The notes beneath the pieces are model-generated. The model was not told the DNA's origin. It worked only from the letters and a program-made list of their open reading frames with translations, and did not search any database. A stretch of 64,000 nt of DNA from Escherichia coli (GTDB taxonomy: Bacteria > Pseudomonadota > Gammaproteobacteria > Enterobacterales > Enterobacteriaceae), in the NCBI RefSeq assembly GCF_003334765.1, contig NZ_QOWT01000002.1; one strand, written 5' to 3'. Made by a program: the position numbers and the translations under genes. This document shows positions 42,980-55,142 of this stretch, piece after piece (the stretch's first letter is position 1; each line of letters starts with the position of its first letter).

Positions 42980-44068
42980 ATGAATAACCGGGAAAAGGAG
43001 ATCCTTGCAATTTTACGGCGTAACCCGCTGATTCAGCAGAACGAAATTGCGGACATGCTGCAAATCAGCCGTTCGCGCGTTGCGGCGCATATTATGGATT
43101 TAATGCGCAAAGGCCGGATTAAAGGCAAAGGTTACATTCTCACCGAGCAGGAATACTGCGTAGTGGTGGGGACAATCAATATGGATATTCGCGGGATGGC
43201 GGATATCCGTTACCCGCAATCGGCTTCTCATCCCGGTACAATTCATTGCTCAGCGGGCGGCGTGGGACGCAACATCGCCCACAATCTGGCGCTGTTAGGC
43301 CGTGACGTCCATTTGCTTTCAGTGATTGGCGATGACTTTTATGGCGAAATGCTCCTGGAAGAAACGCGCCGTGCCGGCGTGAATGTCTCCGGCTGCGTTC
43401 GTTTGCATGGTCAAAGCACATCGACGTATCTGGCAATTGCCAATCGAGACGATCAAACCGTGCTGGCGATTAACGATACCCATCTGCTGGAACAGTTGAC
43501 ACCGCAACTACTGAACGGGTCGCGCGATTTACTTCGTCATGCGGGCGTGGTACTGGCTGATTGCAACCTGACAGCCGAGGCGCTGGAATGGGTCTTTACC
43601 CTCGCTGATGAAATCCCGGTGTTTGTCGATACCGTTTCAGAATTCAAAGCGGGCAAAATCAAACACTGGCTGGTGCATATTCACACCCTGAAACCCACTT
43701 TACCGGAGCTGGAAATTTTATGGGGACAGGCGATCACCAGCGATGCTGACCGTAATACCGCAGTGAATGCATTGCATCAGCAAGGTGTTCAGCAACTGTT
43801 TGTTTATTTGCCCGATGAGTCAGTTTATTGCAGCGAAAAGGATGGAGAACAATTTTTGCTGACCGCGCCAGCGCATACGACAGTAGACAGTTTTGGTGCT
43901 GACGATGGTTTTATGGCGGGCCTGGTATATAGCTTTCTTGAAGGATACAGTTTCCGCGACAGCGCCCGTTTTGCGGTAGCCTGCGCGGCAATTTCGCGCG
44001 CCAGCGGCAGCTTAAACAACCCTACCCTGTCTGCCGATAACGCGCTTTCATTAGTGCCAATGGTGTAA
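42980..44068 (+). CDS. yeiI: PfkB-family sugar/nucleoside kinase with N-terminal HTH, YeiI
   Basis: HTH N-terminus plus ribokinase-like domain (GGVGRNIA, GADD); starts 2 nt after nfo stop. Confidence 0.85.
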   Translation: MNNREKEILAILRRNPLIQQNEIADMLQISRSRVAAHIMDLMRKGRIKGKGYILTEQEYCVVVGTINMDIRGMADIRYPQSASHPGTIHCSAGGVGRNIAHNLALLGRDVHLLSVIGDDFYGEMLLEETRRAGVNVSGCVRLHGQSTSTYLAIANRDDQTVLAINDTHLLEQLTPQLLNGSRDLLRHAGVVLADCNLTAEALEWVFTLADEIPVFVDTVSEFKAGKIKHWLVHIHTLKPTLPELEILWGQAITSDADRNTAVNALHQQGVQQLFVYLPDESVYCSEKDGEQFLLTAPAHTTVDSFGADDGFMAGLVYSFLEGYSFRDSARFAVACAAISRASGSLNNPTLSADNALSLVPMV

Positions 44069-44174: not shown

Positions 44175-45425
44175 TCAAGCTAAACCAATAAAGAACCCGG
44201 CAATGGTCGCACTCATCAAGTTGGAAAGCGTCGCCGCCGCCAGCGCCCGTAAACCAAGCTGGGCGATTTCCGGCGCACGGTGTGGCGCAACCGCAGAAAA
44301 CGCCCCCACCACCACCCCGATAGAACCAAAGTTAGCGAAACCGCACAACGCGAAGGAAATAATCGCCACAGTTTTAGCATCGAGAGTGCCAGCCGTTTGC
44401 AGATAGGGTGAGAAATTGAGATAAGCGACAAATTCATTTATTGCCAGTTTCTGTCCAATCAAACTCCCGGCAAGATTCGCATCACTCCAGTCCACACCCA
44501 TCACCCACGCCAGTGGAGCCAGCAGGTAACCTAAAATGGACTCCAGCGAGGCATGTTCAAAACCAAACCAGCCACCAACGCCGCCGATAATACCGTTAAT
44601 CAACGCAATTATTGCAACAAATGCCATCACCACTGTTGCCACACCTGCGGCGATTTTCAGCCCGGTCATTGCCCCTGTCGCAGCGGCTTCAATAATGCTT
44701 TTTGGCGGTGTTTCGGTGAAAGAGAGGTTATTAAAGGAAACCTGCGAAGATTCCGTTGCCGGGCTTAACAGGCGGGCAAACAAGATCCCGCCAGGGATCG
44801 CCATTAATGATGCCGCCAGCAGATATTCCACAGGCACGCCCAGTGCGGCGTAACCAATCATTGTCGAACCAGCAATCGAGGCCATGCCACTACAAATCGC
44901 TGTAAATAATTCATTGCGATTCAGACGATCGATAAAGGGTTTGACGATTGCCGGAATTTCGTTTTGCCCGAGGAAAATGGTGGTGACCGCGACGAATGAC
45001 TCGATCTTGCTGATATTTAATGCTTTCTGGAAGATACCGCCGAGAATTCGAATTAAAATCCCCATCACACCGATGTAGTAGAGAATACTCACCAGCGCGG
45101 TGACGAAGATAATTGCCGGTAACACCCTGAAACCAAAGATAAATCCTGCACCATCAAATAAGGTATCCATTTTCGGTCCGACCAGAGAACCGAAGATAAA
45201 TGCGCTACCCGCGTCGCTGTACGCCATCACTTTATGCACGCCAAAAGCGACTTTTTCAGCGACCCAACGCCCTGGCGGTAACCAAAGCATAATGCCGCCA
45301 ATCACGACCTGTAACACTAACGCCGCGCCAACGGTACGCAGGCTGATCTTCTTCTTGTTTACTGACAGTAAAAACGCAATCGTCAGCAATACCACCATTC
45401 CCAGAACACTTCTCATGACATCCAT
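44175..45425 (-). CDS. nupX: NupC-family nucleoside permease NupX
   Basis: 416 aa polytopic transporter; close paralogue of psuT in this window. Confidence 0.85.
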   Translation of the reverse strand: MDVMRSVLGMVVLLTIAFLLSVNKKKISLRTVGAALVLQVVIGGIMLWLPPGRWVAEKVAFGVHKVMAYSDAGSAFIFGSLVGPKMDTLFDGAGFIFGFRVLPAIIFVTALVSILYYIGVMGILIRILGGIFQKALNISKIESFVAVTTIFLGQNEIPAIVKPFIDRLNRNELFTAICSGMASIAGSTMIGYAALGVPVEYLLAASLMAIPGGILFARLLSPATESSQVSFNNLSFTETPPKSIIEAAATGAMTGLKIAAGVATVVMAFVAIIALINGIIGGVGGWFGFEHASLESILGYLLAPLAWVMGVDWSDANLAGSLIGQKLAINEFVAYLNFSPYLQTAGTLDAKTVAIISFALCGFANFGSIGVVVGAFSAVAPHRAPEIAQLGLRALAAATLSNLMSATIAGFFIGLA

Positions 45426-45524
45426 AGTGATTATCTCTTCATGTCATATTGGGCGACGGCTTTCTGCCCATCAGAAATAGCCAGGCCTGCATCTTGCGAT
45501 ACCGGCCCGGCTTGTTATCAACAC

Positions 45525-46466
45525 TTAATGGGTTTTGATGTAGCCGCGCACGCACTCTTCGACTAATCCCCAGAACCAGTCTGTATCAATAGTGATGCCG
45601 ACTTTGGTATTGGCGGGCTTGCCAAGAACGCCCAGCTCGTCGCAGACGGTACGCCCATAGCAAGGGCCACTGTTGACGTCCACTTCGACGTACATCTCCT
45701 GGGTTTTAATGCCATCAGGGTTAATCAGATAACCGATGCAGGTGGCGTCGTGCACCGGGCCGCCAGCAAGGCCGTAGTTTTCGAACTGCGTTTTGAGAGT
45801 GAAGTTCATGATGTCGCTGAACAGCTCTCCGGCGGGGCCGCCTGCCCTTTCCATCCGAGCAATCACGTCCGGGGTGCAAACGGTCTGGTTGGTGAGATCG
45901 AGGCCCATCATCACTAATGGAACGCCGGAGGTGAACACTACGCGTGCGGCTTCCGGGTCGGCAAAGATGTTGAACTCGGCAGATGGCGTGAAGTTGCCTG
46001 TACCGTAAGCGCCGCCCATTAGCACAATTTCACGGATTTTGGGCAGGATCGCGGGTTGCATACGCATTGCCACCGCGATATTTGAAAGCGGACCAACCGG
46101 CACCAGAGTGATATCGCCATCGCTTGCCATCAGGGTATCAATGATATATTTCACCGCATGAGTGCTTTCTGCCTGGCGGGTCAGCGGCTCGAATACCGGG
46201 CCATCCAGTCCGGTTTCACCGTGAATATTATCGGCAACGATTTGTTGACGCATAATGGGCTGCGGCATCCCCGCATAAACCGGAACATTAATCTCCAGTT
46301 TCTGGCAAACATTCAGGCCATTAATTAATGTTTTATCAAGCGTCTGATTACCCGCTACAATAGTGATGCCTAATAAATCTATTGCCGGATGTTTCGCCGC
46401 CATCATTATAGCAATAGCATCATCATGACCCGGATCACAATCCAGAATAATTTTTCTCTTTTCCAT
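45525..46466 (-). CDS. rihB: Pyrimidine-specific ribonucleoside hydrolase RihB
   Basis: N-terminal DxDxxxDD calcium/ribose motif (DCDPGHDDA). Confidence 0.9.
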
Positions 46467-46634
46467 TGTTTATTTCCTCTGTTTCCAGTTGCGTTATTTT
46501 TCCTACAGCAAAGAAAATTCGACCGGGCCGATGATTGAATCTTAACAACAGCGTACGTATGCTAAATATGAGAAATCTCATAGCGGATAAACATCGTGAA
46601 AGAAATCCACAATAATGATCTTAAGCAGCAATTG

Positions 46635-47294
46635 ATGAGTGAATCCGCGTTTAAGGATTGCTTTTTAACGGATGTTTCAGCCGATACGCGGCTGTTTCAT
46701 TTTTTAGCGCGTGACTACATTGTGCAGGAAGGGCAACAGCCGTCCTGGCTGTTTTACCTGACGCGAGGCCGCGCCAGGCTTTACGCCACGCTAGCTAATG
46801 GTCGCGTGTCGCTGATCGATTTCTTTGCCGCCCCCTGTTTTATTGGCGAGATTGAGTTAATCGATAAAGACCATGAACCGCGTGCGGTGCAGGCTATTGA
46901 AGAGTGTTGGTGCCTTGCGCTCCCTATGAAACATTACCGTCCGCTGTTATTAAACGACACGCTATTTTTACGAAAACTCTGCGTCACCTTAAGTCATAAA
47001 AATTATCGTAATATTGTTTCTTTAACTCAGAATCAATCATTTCCGTTAGTGAATCGCCTGGCAGCATTTATATTACTCTCGCAGGAAGGTGATCTTTATC
47101 ACGAAAAGCATACGCAAGCGGCAGAGTATTTAGGCGTTTCTTATCGACATCTTTTATATGTTCTCGCGCAGTTCATTCACGACGGTTTATTAATTAAAAG
47201 CAAGAAAGGGTATCTCATTAAAAACAGAAAGCAGTTGTCAGGACTGGCGCTGGAGATGGACCCGGAGAATAAATTCTCCGGGATGATGCAGTAA
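46635..47294 (+). CDS. yeiL: CRP/FNR-family transcriptional regulator YeiL
   Basis: cNMP-binding-like domain plus C-terminal HTH; alternative GTG start at 46596. Confidence 0.8.
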
Positions 47295-48615: not shown

Positions 48616-48708
48616 AATGATTTTCCCTTCATGCCGGTAAATCCGGCGTCAGCGCCAGGTTTTGGTATGCTTGATGAGTACGGGCGACGGCTTTCTGCCC
48701 GTCAGAAA

Positions 48709-49647
48709 TTAACCCGCGAGACGCTGATATTCTTTGGCAATTTCGCTCGCCAGAATGGCGTTGTTGAACACCAGCTGGATGTTGGATTTCAGGCTGTCAC
48801 CGCCGGTCAGTTCAGCAACGCGCGCCAGCAGGAATGGCGTACTTTCTTTACCAATGACTCCCTGAGCTTCAGCTTCAGCTACCGCCTGATCGATCGCCGC
48901 ATTGATAGTGTGTTCCGGCATAGCAAACTGTTCCGGGATCGGGTTCGCTACCACGAGGCCACCGTTCAGACCGCTTTGCCATTTCACCGCCATTGCACGG
49001 GCAATTTCGCTGGCGCTGTCGAGACGAATGCTGACGTCAAACGGGCTGGTGCGGCAGAAAAACGCAGGCAGCGCTTTAGTCTGATAGCCAATTAACGGCA
49101 CACCGAAGGTTTCTAAATACTCAGTGGTTAATCCTAAATCGAGAATAGATTTCGCCCCGGCACAAACAACGGTGACATTAGTATTTGCCAGTTCTTGCAA
49201 ATCGGCAGAAATATCGAAGGTATGTTCCGCCCCGCGATGCACACCACCAATTCCCCCGGTGGCAAATACTTTAATTCCGGCAAGCGCCGCAATAATCATC
49301 GTTGAAGCCACAGTGGTTGCGCCATTTTTTCCGGCGGCAACAACAAAAGGTAAATCGCGACGACTAACTTTGGTCACGTTATGCCCTTCACGACCCAGTA
49401 ATTCAATTTCTTCTTTGCTTAACCCCACTTTCATCACGCCGCCAATAATGGCGATCGTGGCAGGTACAGCGCCCTGTTTACGAATAGTTTCTTCAACTTC
49501 AATTGCGGTCTGGGCATTTTGTGGGAACGGCATCCCGTGAGAAATAATGGTCGATTCCAGCGCCACAACCGGTTTTTTGTTTTTTAAAGCGTCCTGCACT
49601 TCCGGGGAAATTTGTAATAATTCAGGGGAAATTTTTAATTCAGACAT
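48709..49647 (-). CDS. psuG: Pseudouridine-5-phosphate glycosidase PsuG (YeiN)
   Basis: Indigoidine-synthase-A-like fold; recognised sequence. Confidence 0.9.
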   Translation of the reverse strand: MSELKISPELLQISPEVQDALKNKKPVVALESTIISHGMPFPQNAQTAIEVEETIRKQGAVPATIAIIGGVMKVGLSKEEIELLGREGHNVTKVSRRDLPFVVAAGKNGATTVASTMIIAALAGIKVFATGGIGGVHRGAEHTFDISADLQELANTNVTVVCAGAKSILDLGLTTEYLETFGVPLIGYQTKALPAFFCRTSPFDVSIRLDSASEIARAMAVKWQSGLNGGLVVANPIPEQFAMPEHTINAAIDQAVAEAEAQGVIGKESTPFLLARVAELTGGDSLKSNIQLVFNNAILASEIAKEYQRLAG

Positions 49648-50576
49648 TCTGCGTTCTCCACTAACGATATAACGTTGGCAATCGATAAATCGGGGTTATT
49701 GGTGTATTCACAGGAGAGCGCCATTGACGAACATCCCTGTGCGAAACGAACAGATTCGGCAAACGGCATTCCGTCTACCCAACACGAAGCAAGTCCCGCC
49801 ATCATGGCATCGCCCGCTCCGGTAACATTAATAACATTGGTTTTGATCGGCGCAGACCAGCCACTTTCACCGCTGATATCGCTGTAATAAACGCCGTCGC
49901 CGCCCATGCTCAATACCAGTCGGTTCAGGCCATGTTGATGGAACCAGGCAGCAACTTTTGCCACATCTTCACGCCCTGACAGCGCAATCCCACTCAGGGT
50001 TTCCGCTTCAAGGCGGTTTGGCTTGAGAGTGTGGATCTGATTTAGACGGTCGCGCACTTTGACACATTTCCATGCCGAAACCGGATCGACAAATACGGGT
50101 ACGTTGGCGGCATTATCCAGAATCCATGCCAGTGCCTCTTCACTGATATTACAGTCCGCGACAATGACCTTTGCCCTCTGAATAAATTCACCGTGCTGTG
50201 CGAGATATTCAGCTGTAATAGCGTTGCTAATATTCATGTCATTTATAGCAACCAGCATTTCACCGGTATTATCGAGTAATGATAAATAACTCGACGTATT
50301 TTCTCCCGGCACAATCAGGCATTTATCGACATAAACGCCAGATTGATTGGTTTGCGTTAGCAGCGATTGACCATAAAAATCACTGCCTACGGCGCTCAGT
50401 AGCCAGGCTTTGTTACCCAGCAACGCCAGGTTTTGTGCAATATTGCGCCCTACTCCACCAGGCGTAAATTTTATTTTACCTGGATTTGAATCCGCATAAT
50501 TTAATGATTCATGTGAATATCCGGCGACATCAATATTCGCCGAACCTATAATTACGACATAATCCTTTTCGCGCAT
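49635..50576 (-). CDS. psuK: Pseudouridine kinase PsuK (YeiC)
   Basis: PfkB family (GGVGRNIA, TGAGDAMMAG); 13-nt overlap with psuG. Confidence 0.9.
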   Translation of the reverse strand: MREKDYVVIIGSANIDVAGYSHESLNYADSNPGKIKFTPGGVGRNIAQNLALLGNKAWLLSAVGSDFYGQSLLTQTNQSGVYVDKCLIVPGENTSSYLSLLDNTGEMLVAINDMNISNAITAEYLAQHGEFIQRAKVIVADCNISEEALAWILDNAANVPVFVDPVSAWKCVKVRDRLNQIHTLKPNRLEAETLSGIALSGREDVAKVAAWFHQHGLNRLVLSMGGDGVYYSDISGESGWSAPIKTNVINVTGAGDAMMAGLASCWVDGMPFAESVRFAQGCSSMALSCEYTNNPDLSIANVISLVENAECLN

Positions 50577-50814
50577 AGCACGTCCTCTGGTAAAAAATTA
50601 CCAACCCTGTCAATCCACAAGAATATAGATACTGCAAAGACGGTTTAAACATGTGTTCATATTTAAACATGTGCTCATAGTATGCATGTTTTACGTAAAG
50701 TAAATTACCGCCAGAGAGGCAAAATGGGCAGATTTGAGCAGGCTCACAAAATGCGATTAAATGCCTGAATTACAAAAGCGAGGAATTTGTGACGGGATGC
50801 ACAGAACAGAACAA

Positions 50815-50843
50815 TAAAAAAGGGCAGAAAATAATCTGCCCTT
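50815..50843 (-). terminator. Intrinsic terminator, probable end of fruBKA transcript
   Basis: AGGGCAG / CTGCCCT stem with 8-nt loop followed by a U-run on the minus strand, about 155 nt past fruA stop. Confidence 0.55.
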
Positions 50844-50998: not shown

Positions 50999-52690
50999 TT
51001 ACGCTGCTTTCGCTACTGCGTCCACTTCCGGACGTTTCAGGAAGGCATAGGCCAAACCCGCCACCAGCGTACCGGCAATAATTGCTACCAGGTAACCCAA
51101 TACCGGCGTAATAGCGCCAGGGATCAGCAGAACAAACAGACCACCGTGCGGTGCCATCAGTTTCGCACCAATCGCCATTGAGATTGCGCCAGTCAGCGCC
51201 CCACCCACGATACAGCACGGCAGCACACGCATCGGATCACGAGCAGCAAACGGAATTGCACCTTCCGAAATGAAGCACAGTCCCAATACCAGAGCGGCTT
51301 TGCCACCTTCCTGCTGCGCTTTGTCGAATTTGCGACGCGCCACCATTGTTGCCAGACCCATTGCCAGCGGTGGCACCATACCTGCCGCCATAATCGCCGC
51401 CATCGGGCCATAGGTTTGAGTACTCAGCAGACCCACACCGAATGCGTACGCTGCTTTGTTTACCGGACCGCCCATGTCAGTACACATCATGCCACCGAGG
51501 ATCGCCCCCAGCAGAACCGCATTCGCAGTCCCCATGGTCTGCAGCCAGTGAGTCAGCCCTTCGAGAATGCCAGCAACTGGTTTACCGATCAGGTAGATCA
51601 TCGCCAGACCGACCACCAGACTGGAAATTAGCGGAATGATCAGGATCGGTTTCAGCGCCTCCATACTCTGTGGCAGTTTCAATTGCGTACTGATTAACTT
51701 CGCAATGTAACCAGCCAGGAAGCCCGCAATAATACCACCAATGAAGCCAGAACCGGTGCTGACCGCCAGCATACCGCCAATCAGACCCGGAGTGAGGCCC
51801 GGACGATCGGCAATGGAAAAGGCAATATAACCTGCCAGTACCGGCACCATCAGCGCAAAGGCTGAACCACCACCAATCTGCATCAGCGCCGCAGCCAACG
51901 TACCCGGCTCTTTAAACGCTTCGATACCAAAAGCAAAAGAAAGCGCGATACACAGACCACCTGCAACGACCATCGGCAGCATGTAAGAAACGCCCGTCAG
52001 CAAGTGACGGTATGCGCCTGCACTCTCTTTCTTACTTTCAGTGGTCGCCGTTTGAGCTTTGCCCGCCGGTTCATACGGCGTTGCTTCAGCAACCGCTTTA
52101 TCCAGTTCCTGCGCGGTTTTCTTCAGCGCCAGACCGGTAGAGGTACGATACATCGGTTTACCAGCAAATTTCGCCAGATCCACTTCGATATCTGCCGCCA
52201 CAATCACCAGATCCGCTGCTGCGACTTCTTCGGGAGTGATTGCATTACCCGCGCCAACAGAACCACGGGTTTCAACTTTCACCCACCAGCCACGTTTTTT
52301 CGCTTCGGTTTCAATGGCTTCAGCCGCCATAAAGGTGTGTGCTACGCCAGTCGGGCAAGCAGTCACCGCAACTACGCGTTTCGGACCGCTGGCGGCAACT
52401 GGTGCTGTCGCAGCGACCGGCGCAGTGTAAGGTTTCGCATGGCCTTTGGCTTCACTCAGGAACAGCTCAGGGTGCGCAACTGCCCGGGAAATATCGCCCA
52501 GCCAGACATTTTTACCGTTCAGCGCGCTGTCGTTCGGGATGGAATCACCGAGAACAATCGCCATTTCAGCGTCGTTCGGATTGTCGATGATTTCCAGTTT
52601 TGCTTTTCGCGCCGCCGCGCCCAGCAGGGTCTTCGCCATATAGGCGCGTGCCTGACCGAGATTAGCGTCAATAATCAGCAGCGTTTTCAT
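50999..52690 (-). CDS. fruA: Fructose PTS enzyme IIB'BC
   Basis: 563 aa; recognised sequence. Confidence 0.95.
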   Translation of the reverse strand: MKTLLIIDANLGQARAYMAKTLLGAAARKAKLEIIDNPNDAEMAIVLGDSIPNDSALNGKNVWLGDISRAVAHPELFLSEAKGHAKPYTAPVAATAPVAASGPKRVVAVTACPTGVAHTFMAAEAIETEAKKRGWWVKVETRGSVGAGNAITPEEVAAADLVIVAADIEVDLAKFAGKPMYRTSTGLALKKTAQELDKAVAEATPYEPAGKAQTATTESKKESAGAYRHLLTGVSYMLPMVVAGGLCIALSFAFGIEAFKEPGTLAAALMQIGGGSAFALMVPVLAGYIAFSIADRPGLTPGLIGGMLAVSTGSGFIGGIIAGFLAGYIAKLISTQLKLPQSMEALKPILIIPLISSLVVGLAMIYLIGKPVAGILEGLTHWLQTMGTANAVLLGAILGGMMCTDMGGPVNKAAYAFGVGLLSTQTYGPMAAIMAAGMVPPLAMGLATMVARRKFDKAQQEGGKAALVLGLCFISEGAIPFAARDPMRVLPCCIVGGALTGAISMAIGAKLMAPHGGLFVLLIPGAITPVLGYLVAIIAGTLVAGLAYAFLKRPEVDAVAKAA

Positions 52691-54877: not shown

Positions 54878-55142
54878 AAAGCATAATACTTCTGTTTCAG
54901 CACGCAAGGAAAGCCGTAAAGTTATGAGCAAAAGTTTGATGTGCTGCACAATTTTTTGCCATTTTTCCTAATTGCTGATGGGAAAATCCGTTATCAGCAA
55001 TTTCATTTCAGCAGCGTCAGCAGCCAATCAGCAACAGTGAAATGGCATTTTGACTATTCGTGGCGCTTTTGATTTCGCTGTCTGTTTATTTTCTGACAAG
55101 CAGCGTAAACTCCGCGTCTTCCTCTTCCAGTGATCGACCAGC

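Follow-up and report, generated by a model that had tools for sequence, protein, structure and literature searches.

Two conserved palindromes at fixed spacing upstream of psuK in Escherichia coli: candidate operators for the kinase-like protein YeiI

Conserved palindromes upstream of psuK

The stretch of DNA analyzed here, 64,000 nucleotides of Escherichia coli contig NZ_QOWT01000002.1 (referred to as the window), contains directly upstream of the pseudouridine kinase gene psuK a tandem repeat of two 18-bp units, which in related species turns out to be conserved as two palindromes, O1 and O2, at fixed spacing. On balance, we lean toward the view that O1 and O2 are paired palindromic repressor operators on a CRP-dependent psuK promoter, most likely bound by YeiI, a protein that combines a winged helix with a kinase-like domain. 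The operators and their context, as read from the sequence, are well supported by comparative data and by one data set obtained by systematic evolution of ligands by exponential enrichment (SELEX); from these we infer the identity of the binder, the mode of repression and the inducer. The features concerned are the following.

49635-50576, minus strand: psuK, first gene of psuK-psuG-psuT, the operon that the operators are positioned to control
50644-50679, minus strand: 18-bp tandem repeat, reading TATGAGCACATGTTTAAA and then TATGAACACATGTTTAAA on the psuK strand
50665-50676 (centre 50670.5), minus strand: putative operator O1, core GAGCA-CA-TGTTT, kept in 12/12 enteric sequences and in the TO60 haplotype
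50647-50658 (centre 50652.5), minus strand: putative operator O2, core GAACA-CA-TGTTT, exactly 18 bp downstream of O1 (at about +19)

The repeat is present as the initial annotation had described it, with TTTAAACATGTGTTCATA at 50644-50661 and TTTAAACATGTGCTCATA at 50662-50679 forming adjacent units that agree at 17 of 18 positions. Its distance from the psuK start, which had been given as 70-105 nt, was measured as 68-103 nt upstream of the ATG (at 50576, minus strand). Neighboring 18-mers with at most one mismatch would be expected by chance about 5e-5 times per 64 kb. The program Tandem Repeats Finder (TRF) reported the repeat with a period of 18, 2.0 copies and a score of 65, and only two other arrays across the window reach a comparable score. 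No further copy of the 18-mer with up to three mismatches could be detected in the window, where 0.17 would be expected. The region around psuK is of the K-12 type and 100% identical to NZ_CP062246.

A scan with PsuK as query, using one genome per species, yielded 11 loci from Escherichia spp., E. albertii, two Buttiauxella, four Citrobacter and a Raoultella metagenome-assembled genome, and the 242 nt upstream of psuK were aligned for 12 sequences from Escherichia, E. albertii, Buttiauxella, Citrobacter and Raoultella. In all 12 of them two palindromes with the consensus RARCA-YR-TGYTY are found with their centers 18 bp apart. On the psuK strand the conserved blocks appear in the order TGTGCATCCCGTCACA, TGTGAGCCTGCTCAAA, ATTTACTTT, TAYTAT, the two palindromes and a hairpin preceding the Shine-Dalgarno sequence, whereas the sequence between the palindromes and that of the downstream 5′ untranslated region (UTR) have diverged. 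Across the 24 sites the arms RARCA and TGYTY are kept, while the center is CA, TG, CG, TA, AG or AA. The whole units are alike at 17/18 positions in the window and in three further loci (L002-L004), but in E. albertii, Buttiauxella, Citrobacter, Raoultella and E. coli TO60 the identity of the full 18-mers is only 10-13/18, with the cores kept. As arms and spacing persist while the identity of the 18-mers drops, what is conserved is a pair of inverted-repeat sites in constant register. The hexamer ACATGT, to which the initial annotation had drawn attention, is indeed included in each of the two units of the window, but it is not conserved across relatives, where the center varies.

These comparisons suggest that the 17/18 direct repeat is a secondary feature, specific for the K-12 haplotype and probably dispensable for function, and that in this haplotype O2 looks as if it had been overwritten by an in-register copy of O1. 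The proposed tandem operator of the psuKGT operon thereby holds up in part: two sites are phylogenetically footprinted over at least ten genera with constant spacing and beside conserved promoter and CRP boxes, but the units are palindromic dimer sites and not direct-repeat sites.

Variation within E. coli

With 48709-50576 of the window as query, a second psuKG haplotype with about 85% identity was found in 1193 of 5412 E. coli genomes (about 22% of complete genomes). Its representative TO60 contains the sites TATGAACATGTGTTTAAA and TCTGAACACATGCTCTAA, which are identical at 12/18 positions and have both palindromes intact and 18 bp apart; the TO60 region upstream of psuK (L029, 2768-3230) resembles that of E. 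albertii and includes an element similar to repetitive extragenic palindromes. The gene yeiI is similarly split, with 2060 genomes showing 80-90% identity. The single-nucleotide polymorphisms (SNPs) found in O157, AR_0128 and 09A22 are all located outside the palindrome cores. A 71-bp operator segment is identical in 65% of the matching E. coli genomes compared with 60% for the neighboring 5′ UTR segment, so that constraint within E. coli does not discriminate at that depth.

In strain EA7 (L020), in the counterpart of 50644-50760, exactly one 18-bp unit is gone, which leaves a single operator. This unit-length loss, together with the restriction of full 18-bp identity to one Escherichia haplotype, is what would be expected if the repeat were a recent slippage duplication without function. 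We regard this explanation as scarcely credible, as both sites are older than their homogenization and keep a fixed spacing across orders of Gammaproteobacteria, and no more than 6 of 4213 genomes are without complete coverage of the operator segment. Strain EA7 also contains an IS5 element in place of the sequence upstream of the proximal CRP box.

Putative promoter and CRP boxes

Upstream of and overlapping the repeat, the following elements were assigned.

50677-50682, minus strand: putative -10 element TACTAT, within a conserved TAYTAT/TATCAT block; it shares three bases with the distal repeat unit, at the end of the hexamer and the beginning of the unit
50699-50704, minus strand: putative -35 element TTTACT, within the conserved block ATTTACTTT
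50733-50748, minus strand: proximal CRP box TGTGAGCCTGCTCAAA, conserved, its center about 70 bp upstream of the O1 center
50788-50803, minus strand: distal CRP box TGTGCATCCCGTCACA, 55 bp upstream of the proximal box
50820-50843, minus strand: terminator-like stem-loop of the upstream fruBKA operon, which bounds the psuK regulatory region (fruA ends at 50999, upstream of psuK)

The spacer between the -35 and -10 elements is 16 nt in all 12 aligned sequences, and in Yersinia and Serratia, too, a TTTACT is found, whose distance from O1 differs from that in E. coli by no more than 1 bp. Both hexamers match their sigma-70 counterparts at 4/6 positions, as expected of an activator-dependent promoter, and they were not listed by a promoter scan because its threshold was 9 of 12 matches. 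Both CRP boxes are conserved and match TGTGA-N6-TCACA at 9/10 positions each, and exactly these two boxes are named for the peak ‘pscK< <fruA’ in a genomic SELEX of CRP (Shimada et al.; PMC3105977, supplementary file 4). If transcription starts near 50670, the proximal CRP box would be in a class I position (about -70), O1 would abut the -10 element and cover +1, and O2 would be centered near +19. This is the geometry of a repressor, with a start site that we infer.

A study on long-term stationary phase lists an A-to-C SNP in the psuK/fruA intergenic region (-126/+297) with the same allele in three populations (PMC7858067). It corresponds to position 50702 of the window and changes TTTACT to TTGACT on the psuK strand, which fits the assignment of the -35 element. 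The sites would lie between -35 and about +20 of the putative promoter that was deduced from conservation, the CRP geometry and this SNP.

Another promoter, TTTAAA-16-TATATT over the proximal unit, was predicted by the scan and rejected, as it is not conserved outside Escherichia and is also broken by an 11-nt deletion in the spacer in E. coli SCPM-O-B-8794 (L003).

Further data touch on the expression of the operon. In recA mutants treated with ciprofloxacin, PsuG was among the most under-expressed proteins in several clinical isolates, as was PsuK in one of them (PMC11039860). A LexA (SOS) box (CTGT-N8-ACAG) was sought for this reason, but no match was found in the window. SELEX with RpoS holoenzyme gave a peak inside psuG (about 48700-49600; type D, ‘psuT < psuG < psuK’; PMC5493296), which hints at an internal promoter that might serve psuT. 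At the overlap of psuK and psuG (49600-49639) a second tandem repeat is present (period 21, TRF score 66); it is coding and gives rise to ELKISPE / LLQISPE at the N-terminus of PsuG.

Sites in distant psu loci

A position weight matrix (PWM) of 16 bp was trained only on the sites from Escherichia, Citrobacter, Buttiauxella and Raoultella and was run over seven distant loci of 9-17 kb. As statistic, the best summed score of two sites 18 or 19 bp apart was used, with 200 block shuffles per locus. The pair with the highest score anywhere in the locus is located directly upstream of the first psu gene in six of the seven cases.

Affinibrenneria: pair score 28.9, spacing 18 bp, reached by 0/200 shuffles
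Serratia: pair score 26.0, spacing 18 bp, reached by 0/200 shuffles
Yersinia: pair score 25.6, spacing 18 bp, reached by 0/200 shuffles
Shewanella: pair score 20.9, spacing 19 bp, reached by 2/200 shuffles
Pasteurella: pair score 20.7, spacing 18 bp, reached by 0/200 shuffles
Aliivibrio: pair score 17.1, spacing 19 bp, reached by 5/200 shuffles

In Yersinia (L013, 8001-8027) and Serratia (L016, 4001-4027) the operator pair overlaps the annotated start (MFKNKQVS.) of a gene for a helix-turn-helix (HTH) protein with a PfkB domain. By alignment, these annotated starts are probably nine codons too early. About 250 bp upstream, each of these two genera has one more palindrome that stands alone (in Yersinia, CCAAACA-CT-TGTTTGG); one like it occurs in Xenorhabdus. 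The occurrence of isolated single palindromes points to the 5-N2-5 palindrome as the binding unit, and the extra palindrome in Yersinia and Serratia could allow looping.

Within the window, no further PWM sites above the shuffle range were found at rihB/yeiL, nupX or nfo/yeiI. The best other match, ATGAGCAAAAGTTTGA in the fruB-setB spacer (54924-54939), reaches 13.9 bits and lies within the shuffle range.

YeiI and related HTH-PfkB proteins

Genes encoding an HTH_24 domain fused to a PfkB domain are located in or beside the psu operon in all 12 enteric loci with flanks examined and in the seven distant loci, six of which also have the pair of sites. As all other flanking genes differ, HTH-PfkB is the sole DNA-binding protein common to these loci. 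In the window, it is represented by the following gene.

42980-44068, plus strand: yeiI (b2160), the proposed regulator, 362 amino acids, with an HTH_24 winged helix (residues 1-48) and a PfkB kinase-like domain (residues 58-348)

The HTH of YeiI was recognized by Pfam HTH_24 with E = 2.3e-10 over residues 1-48. The protein is 38% identical to PsuK, and its NCBIfam name is merely ‘sugar kinase’. Recent papers describe YeiI as uncharacterized, and elsewhere it is listed as a hypothetical transcription factor. A SELEX peak of RpoD at nfo>yeiI is compatible with constitutive expression of yeiI.

Homologues built in this way are widespread, and the arrangement of their genes differs between taxa. 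In Yersinia, Serratia, Xenorhabdus and Pasteurella the HTH-PfkB gene heads an operon of HTH-PfkB, psuG and psuT, and in Shewanella and Aliivibrio one of HTH-PfkB and psuG, while Affinibrenneria has the split arrangement of E. coli. In an alignment of 11 proteins, comprising operon-type HTH-PfkB, YeiI-type and PsuK sequences, the operon-type proteins show 53-60% identity to PsuK in Yersinia, Serratia, Xenorhabdus and Pasteurella, 45% in Shewanella and 41% in Aliivibrio, and retain GAGD, the catalytic motif of PfkB. Proteins of the YeiI type, three in number, occur alongside a separate PsuK; they are 38-41% identical to PsuK and contain GADD or GADE instead of GAGD. Ser30, Asn143 and Lys170 of EcPsuK, which are pseudouridine-binding or conformational residues (PMC9061257), are invariant in 11/11 aligned sequences. 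As the YeiI domain keeps the pseudouridine-contacting residues while its catalytic motif is altered, a role in sensing rather than in phosphorylation is proposed. From E. coli to Shewanella the HTH retains the segment ISRSxVAxHIM, which agrees with the conservation of the AACA/TGTT arms in the sites.

From these observations a model can be drawn, in which the winged helix of YeiI would read the AACA/TGTT half-sites and a dimeric repressor predicted on each site (at about +1 and about +19) would block open-complex formation or promoter escape. The PsuK-like domain would sense pseudouridine or its 5′-phosphate, upon which YeiI would release the DNA. Once the repressor is gone, CRP-cAMP at about -70 and -125 would activate the weak sigma-70 promoter of psuKGT.

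In our judgement the evidence is evenly poised on a wider proposal, according to which the winged HTH (wHTH)-PfkB fusions would form a family of transcription factors that arose from a nucleoside kinase and whose ancestor would have been pseudouridine kinase and autorepressor in one, with the repeat upstream of psuK as its operator pair. Such a bifunctional ancestor would have headed the psu operon, as HTH-PfkB genes do in many Gammaproteobacteria, and a duplication in Escherichia, Citrobacter and relatives would have led to PsuK, a pure kinase that lost the HTH, and to YeiI, a pseudokinase sensor-repressor with a degraded catalytic motif.

No characterized HTH-PfkB regulator, pseudouridine repressor or ‘PsuR’ was found in the searchable literature, nor was any description of this operator (RegulonDB, EcoCyc and RegPrecise were outside the search). 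In the PDB, no entry spans the HTH of such a protein, and every match begins at residue 54 or later.

YeiL as candidate binder

The initial annotation had suggested YeiL as a possible regulator.

46596-47294, plus strand: yeiL, part of the rihB-nupX module and outside the psu system

YeiL belongs to the CRP/FNR family and is encoded between rihB and psuT, so that in E. coli its gene adjoins psuT, and each unit of the repeat is an imperfect palindrome, as expected for the site of a dimeric protein of this family. However, the distribution of the gene does not agree with this suggestion. The yeiL-rihB-nupX block is absent from the psu loci of E. albertii, Buttiauxella gaviniae, B. massiliensis, Citrobacter and Raoultella, where the operators are kept and psuT adjoins a convergent gene of 362 amino acids, namely yeiI, followed by nfo and yeiH. 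Conversely, Hafnia, Enterococcus and Buttiauxella sp. B2 have yeiL in divergent orientation to a nucleoside hydrolase gene, in a locus without psuG and psuK; in Buttiauxella sp. B2 the block yeiL-rihB-nupX lies between nfo and fruA, without psuKGT and without yeiI. The gene thus tracks nucleoside hydrolase genes and not psu, and its constant pairing with a hydrolase gene indicates that it belongs to a rihB-nupX module, which in E. coli is nested inside the psu/yeiI module. As orthologues of yeiL were found elsewhere in some Citrobacter and Buttiauxella species, the claim concerns the absence of yeiL from psu loci and not from genomes.

The geometry of the sites points in the same direction. 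CRP and FNR recognize sites with a core of TGA-N6-TCA (a 5-N6-5 or 5-N4-5 palindrome), whereas the sites upstream of psuK read TGA-N8-TCA. Binding of YeiL to the repeat is therefore considered very improbable.

In Escherichia, rihB-nupX-yeiL (44175-47294) appears as a separate module inserted between yeiI and psuT, and NupX shares 88% identity with PsuT. A box in the rihB/yeiL/psuT interval, CGTGATAAAGATCACC, is likewise included in the CRP SELEX table (PMC3105977).

A possible role at the RNA level

The element might instead act as RNA, with a stem-loop at the 5′ terminus of the psuK mRNA that would affect stability, translation or pairing with the small RNA RprA. Indeed, the K-12 repeat folds into a hairpin of 11-13 bp where the mRNA is predicted to begin (energies of -9 to -11 kcal/mol, z-values of -4.3 and -5.8), and psuK is among the RprA targets common to TRIC-seq and RIL-seq (bioRxiv 10.1101/2025.09.11.675593). 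However, the long hairpin is missing outside the K-12-type haplotype, where a stem of 6-8 bp with z-values of +1.3 to -2.6 remains, which any adjacent inverted half-sites would give. In addition, the half-sites are conserved in sequence and do not covary, and a comparison with Rfam gave no match but a chance hit with E = 0.59. For the predicted RprA-psuK duplex, 21% of shuffles were equally good, and no convincing pairing site could be located in the psuK mRNA (about 50520-50671). A function of the element as RNA thus appears improbable and would be conceivable for the K-12 haplotype only.

The 11-nt inverted repeat of K-12, GTTTAAACATG / CATATTTAAAC (50643-50668), results from the units being both palindromic and tandem. 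It might form a stable hairpin at the predicted mRNA 5′ end or potentially a cruciform, and it is absent in other taxa.

Closer to the gene, a second and smaller structure was noticed.

50589-50602, minus strand: small hairpin GGUAA-UUUU-UUACC, read by eye, directly before the Shine-Dalgarno sequence AGAGGA (50583-50588)

In the E. coli clade the third pair of this hairpin is U:A, as against U.G in E. albertii and C:G in Citrobacter, Buttiauxella, Raoultella and TO60, and the U.G wobble intermediate favors an RNA stem over a DNA site at this position. RNAalifold did not predict any structure for this hairpin, owing to a register shift in the alignment.

A regulator encoded elsewhere and further points against YeiI

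The sites might instead be operators of a regulator encoded elsewhere, of the DeoR/SorC type or otherwise related to nucleosides, with YeiI having another role. Several observations would fit with this. The hexamers TGAACA/TGTTCA are also present in two boxes of the lsrR-lsrA intergenic region, an outward reading of the half-sites as TGTTY-N6-GAACA (e.g., TGTTCGATATTGAACA in locus L010) resembles the operator of GlpR, and yeiI, which in E. coli lies 6.6 kb away from the sites, is apparently co-transcribed with nfo. Against it stands that the lsr boxes have N21 between their hexamers and no inner partner, that the isolated palindromes in Yersinia, Serratia and Xenorhabdus define a 5-N2-5 unit, that the sequence separating O1 from O2 varies freely while the pyrimidine-purine (YR) center is constrained, and that no other DNA-binding gene is common to the ten or more loci. 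A reading of the LsrR type was rejected, as the hexamers are shared but spaced by N21, and the outward reading of the GlpR type was set aside, as isolated single palindromes define the unit and as its period is wrong relative to the GlpR consensus. Overall, we consider a regulator encoded elsewhere unlikely, though deserving of consideration.

Repression by YeiI at O1 and O2, the reading preferred here, also has a number of points weighing against it. In E. coli the gene yeiI, which starts 3 bp after nfo in the same direction, is separated from the operators by 6.6 kb; the PWM scan of the window gave no operator-like site close to yeiI, and synteny leaves room for a regulator encoded elsewhere. 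As nearly all E. coli genomes contain yeiI, yeiL and psuKG, co-occurrence within the species discriminates nothing. Xenorhabdus has an operon led by HTH-PfkB but no detectable pair of sites, only one palindrome far upstream. The spacing in Shewanella and Aliivibrio is 19 bp and not 18, and with a spacing of 18 bp two dimers would not share one face of the helix, so that cooperative binding is not obvious. The placement of the operators downstream of the promoter rests on conservation and on one SNP, which the authors of that study also place among the differences between their parent strains and the reference (PMC7858067), so that it may be a pre-existing polymorphism and not the result of three independent selections.

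Significance and comparison with known systems

No specific regulator of psuKGT was described in the papers searched. If the proposed role of YeiI is true, the orphan E. coli gene yeiI would gain a function and wHTH-PfkB would represent a new architecture of enzyme-derived transcription factors with a clear history of duplication and subfunctionalization. It would also explain how bacteria sense a modified nucleoside that is released by RNA turnover, and it would offer a pseudouridine-responsive switch of practical interest for the engineering of pseudouridine production in E. coli, for which several papers modify or overexpress psuK, psuG or psuT.

Among promoters of nucleoside catabolism and transport operons, those under the control of CytR and CRP (deoP2, udp, cdd) resemble that of psuK in having two CRP boxes about 55 bp apart and a weak promoter. 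They differ in that the proximal CRP box of psuK is predicted at about -70 and not at -41, and in that the putative psuK operators lie downstream of the -10 element and not between the CRP sites. Conserved TGCAA repeats of the CytR type were not seen in the 242-nt upstream alignment of 12 sequences. The glpD promoter, which is controlled by GlpR, shares with psuK two adjacent palindromic operators, which are putative in psuK, over the transcription start (-10 to about +20) of a catabolic operon and half-sites similar to TGTTY/GAACA, but the half-sites of psuK are phased by 7 + 11 bp (period 18) instead of 10 + 10 (period 20).

With respect to the protein, YeiI is similar to the ROK-family regulators NagC and Mlc, in which a DNA-binding domain is fused to a homologue of the kinase of the controlled pathway, while the true kinase paralogue is encoded separately; their palindromic operators likewise overlap or flank a CRP-dependent promoter. 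Unlike in NagC and Mlc, the sensor fold of YeiI is PfkB (ribokinase-like) and not ROK/ASKHA, and its HTH, at the N-terminus, is a winged helix similar to those of AsnC and MarR and comprises about 50 residues. The HTH-PfkB proteins of Yersinia, Serratia, Pasteurella, Shewanella and Aliivibrio would resemble the bifunctional enzyme-repressors BirA and NadR. As each of them is the only PsuK-like gene product of its operon and has kept GAGD, it would be both kinase and autoregulator, whereas in E. coli the two roles appear to be split between PsuK, which has no HTH, and YeiI, which has the HTH and GADD instead of GAGD.

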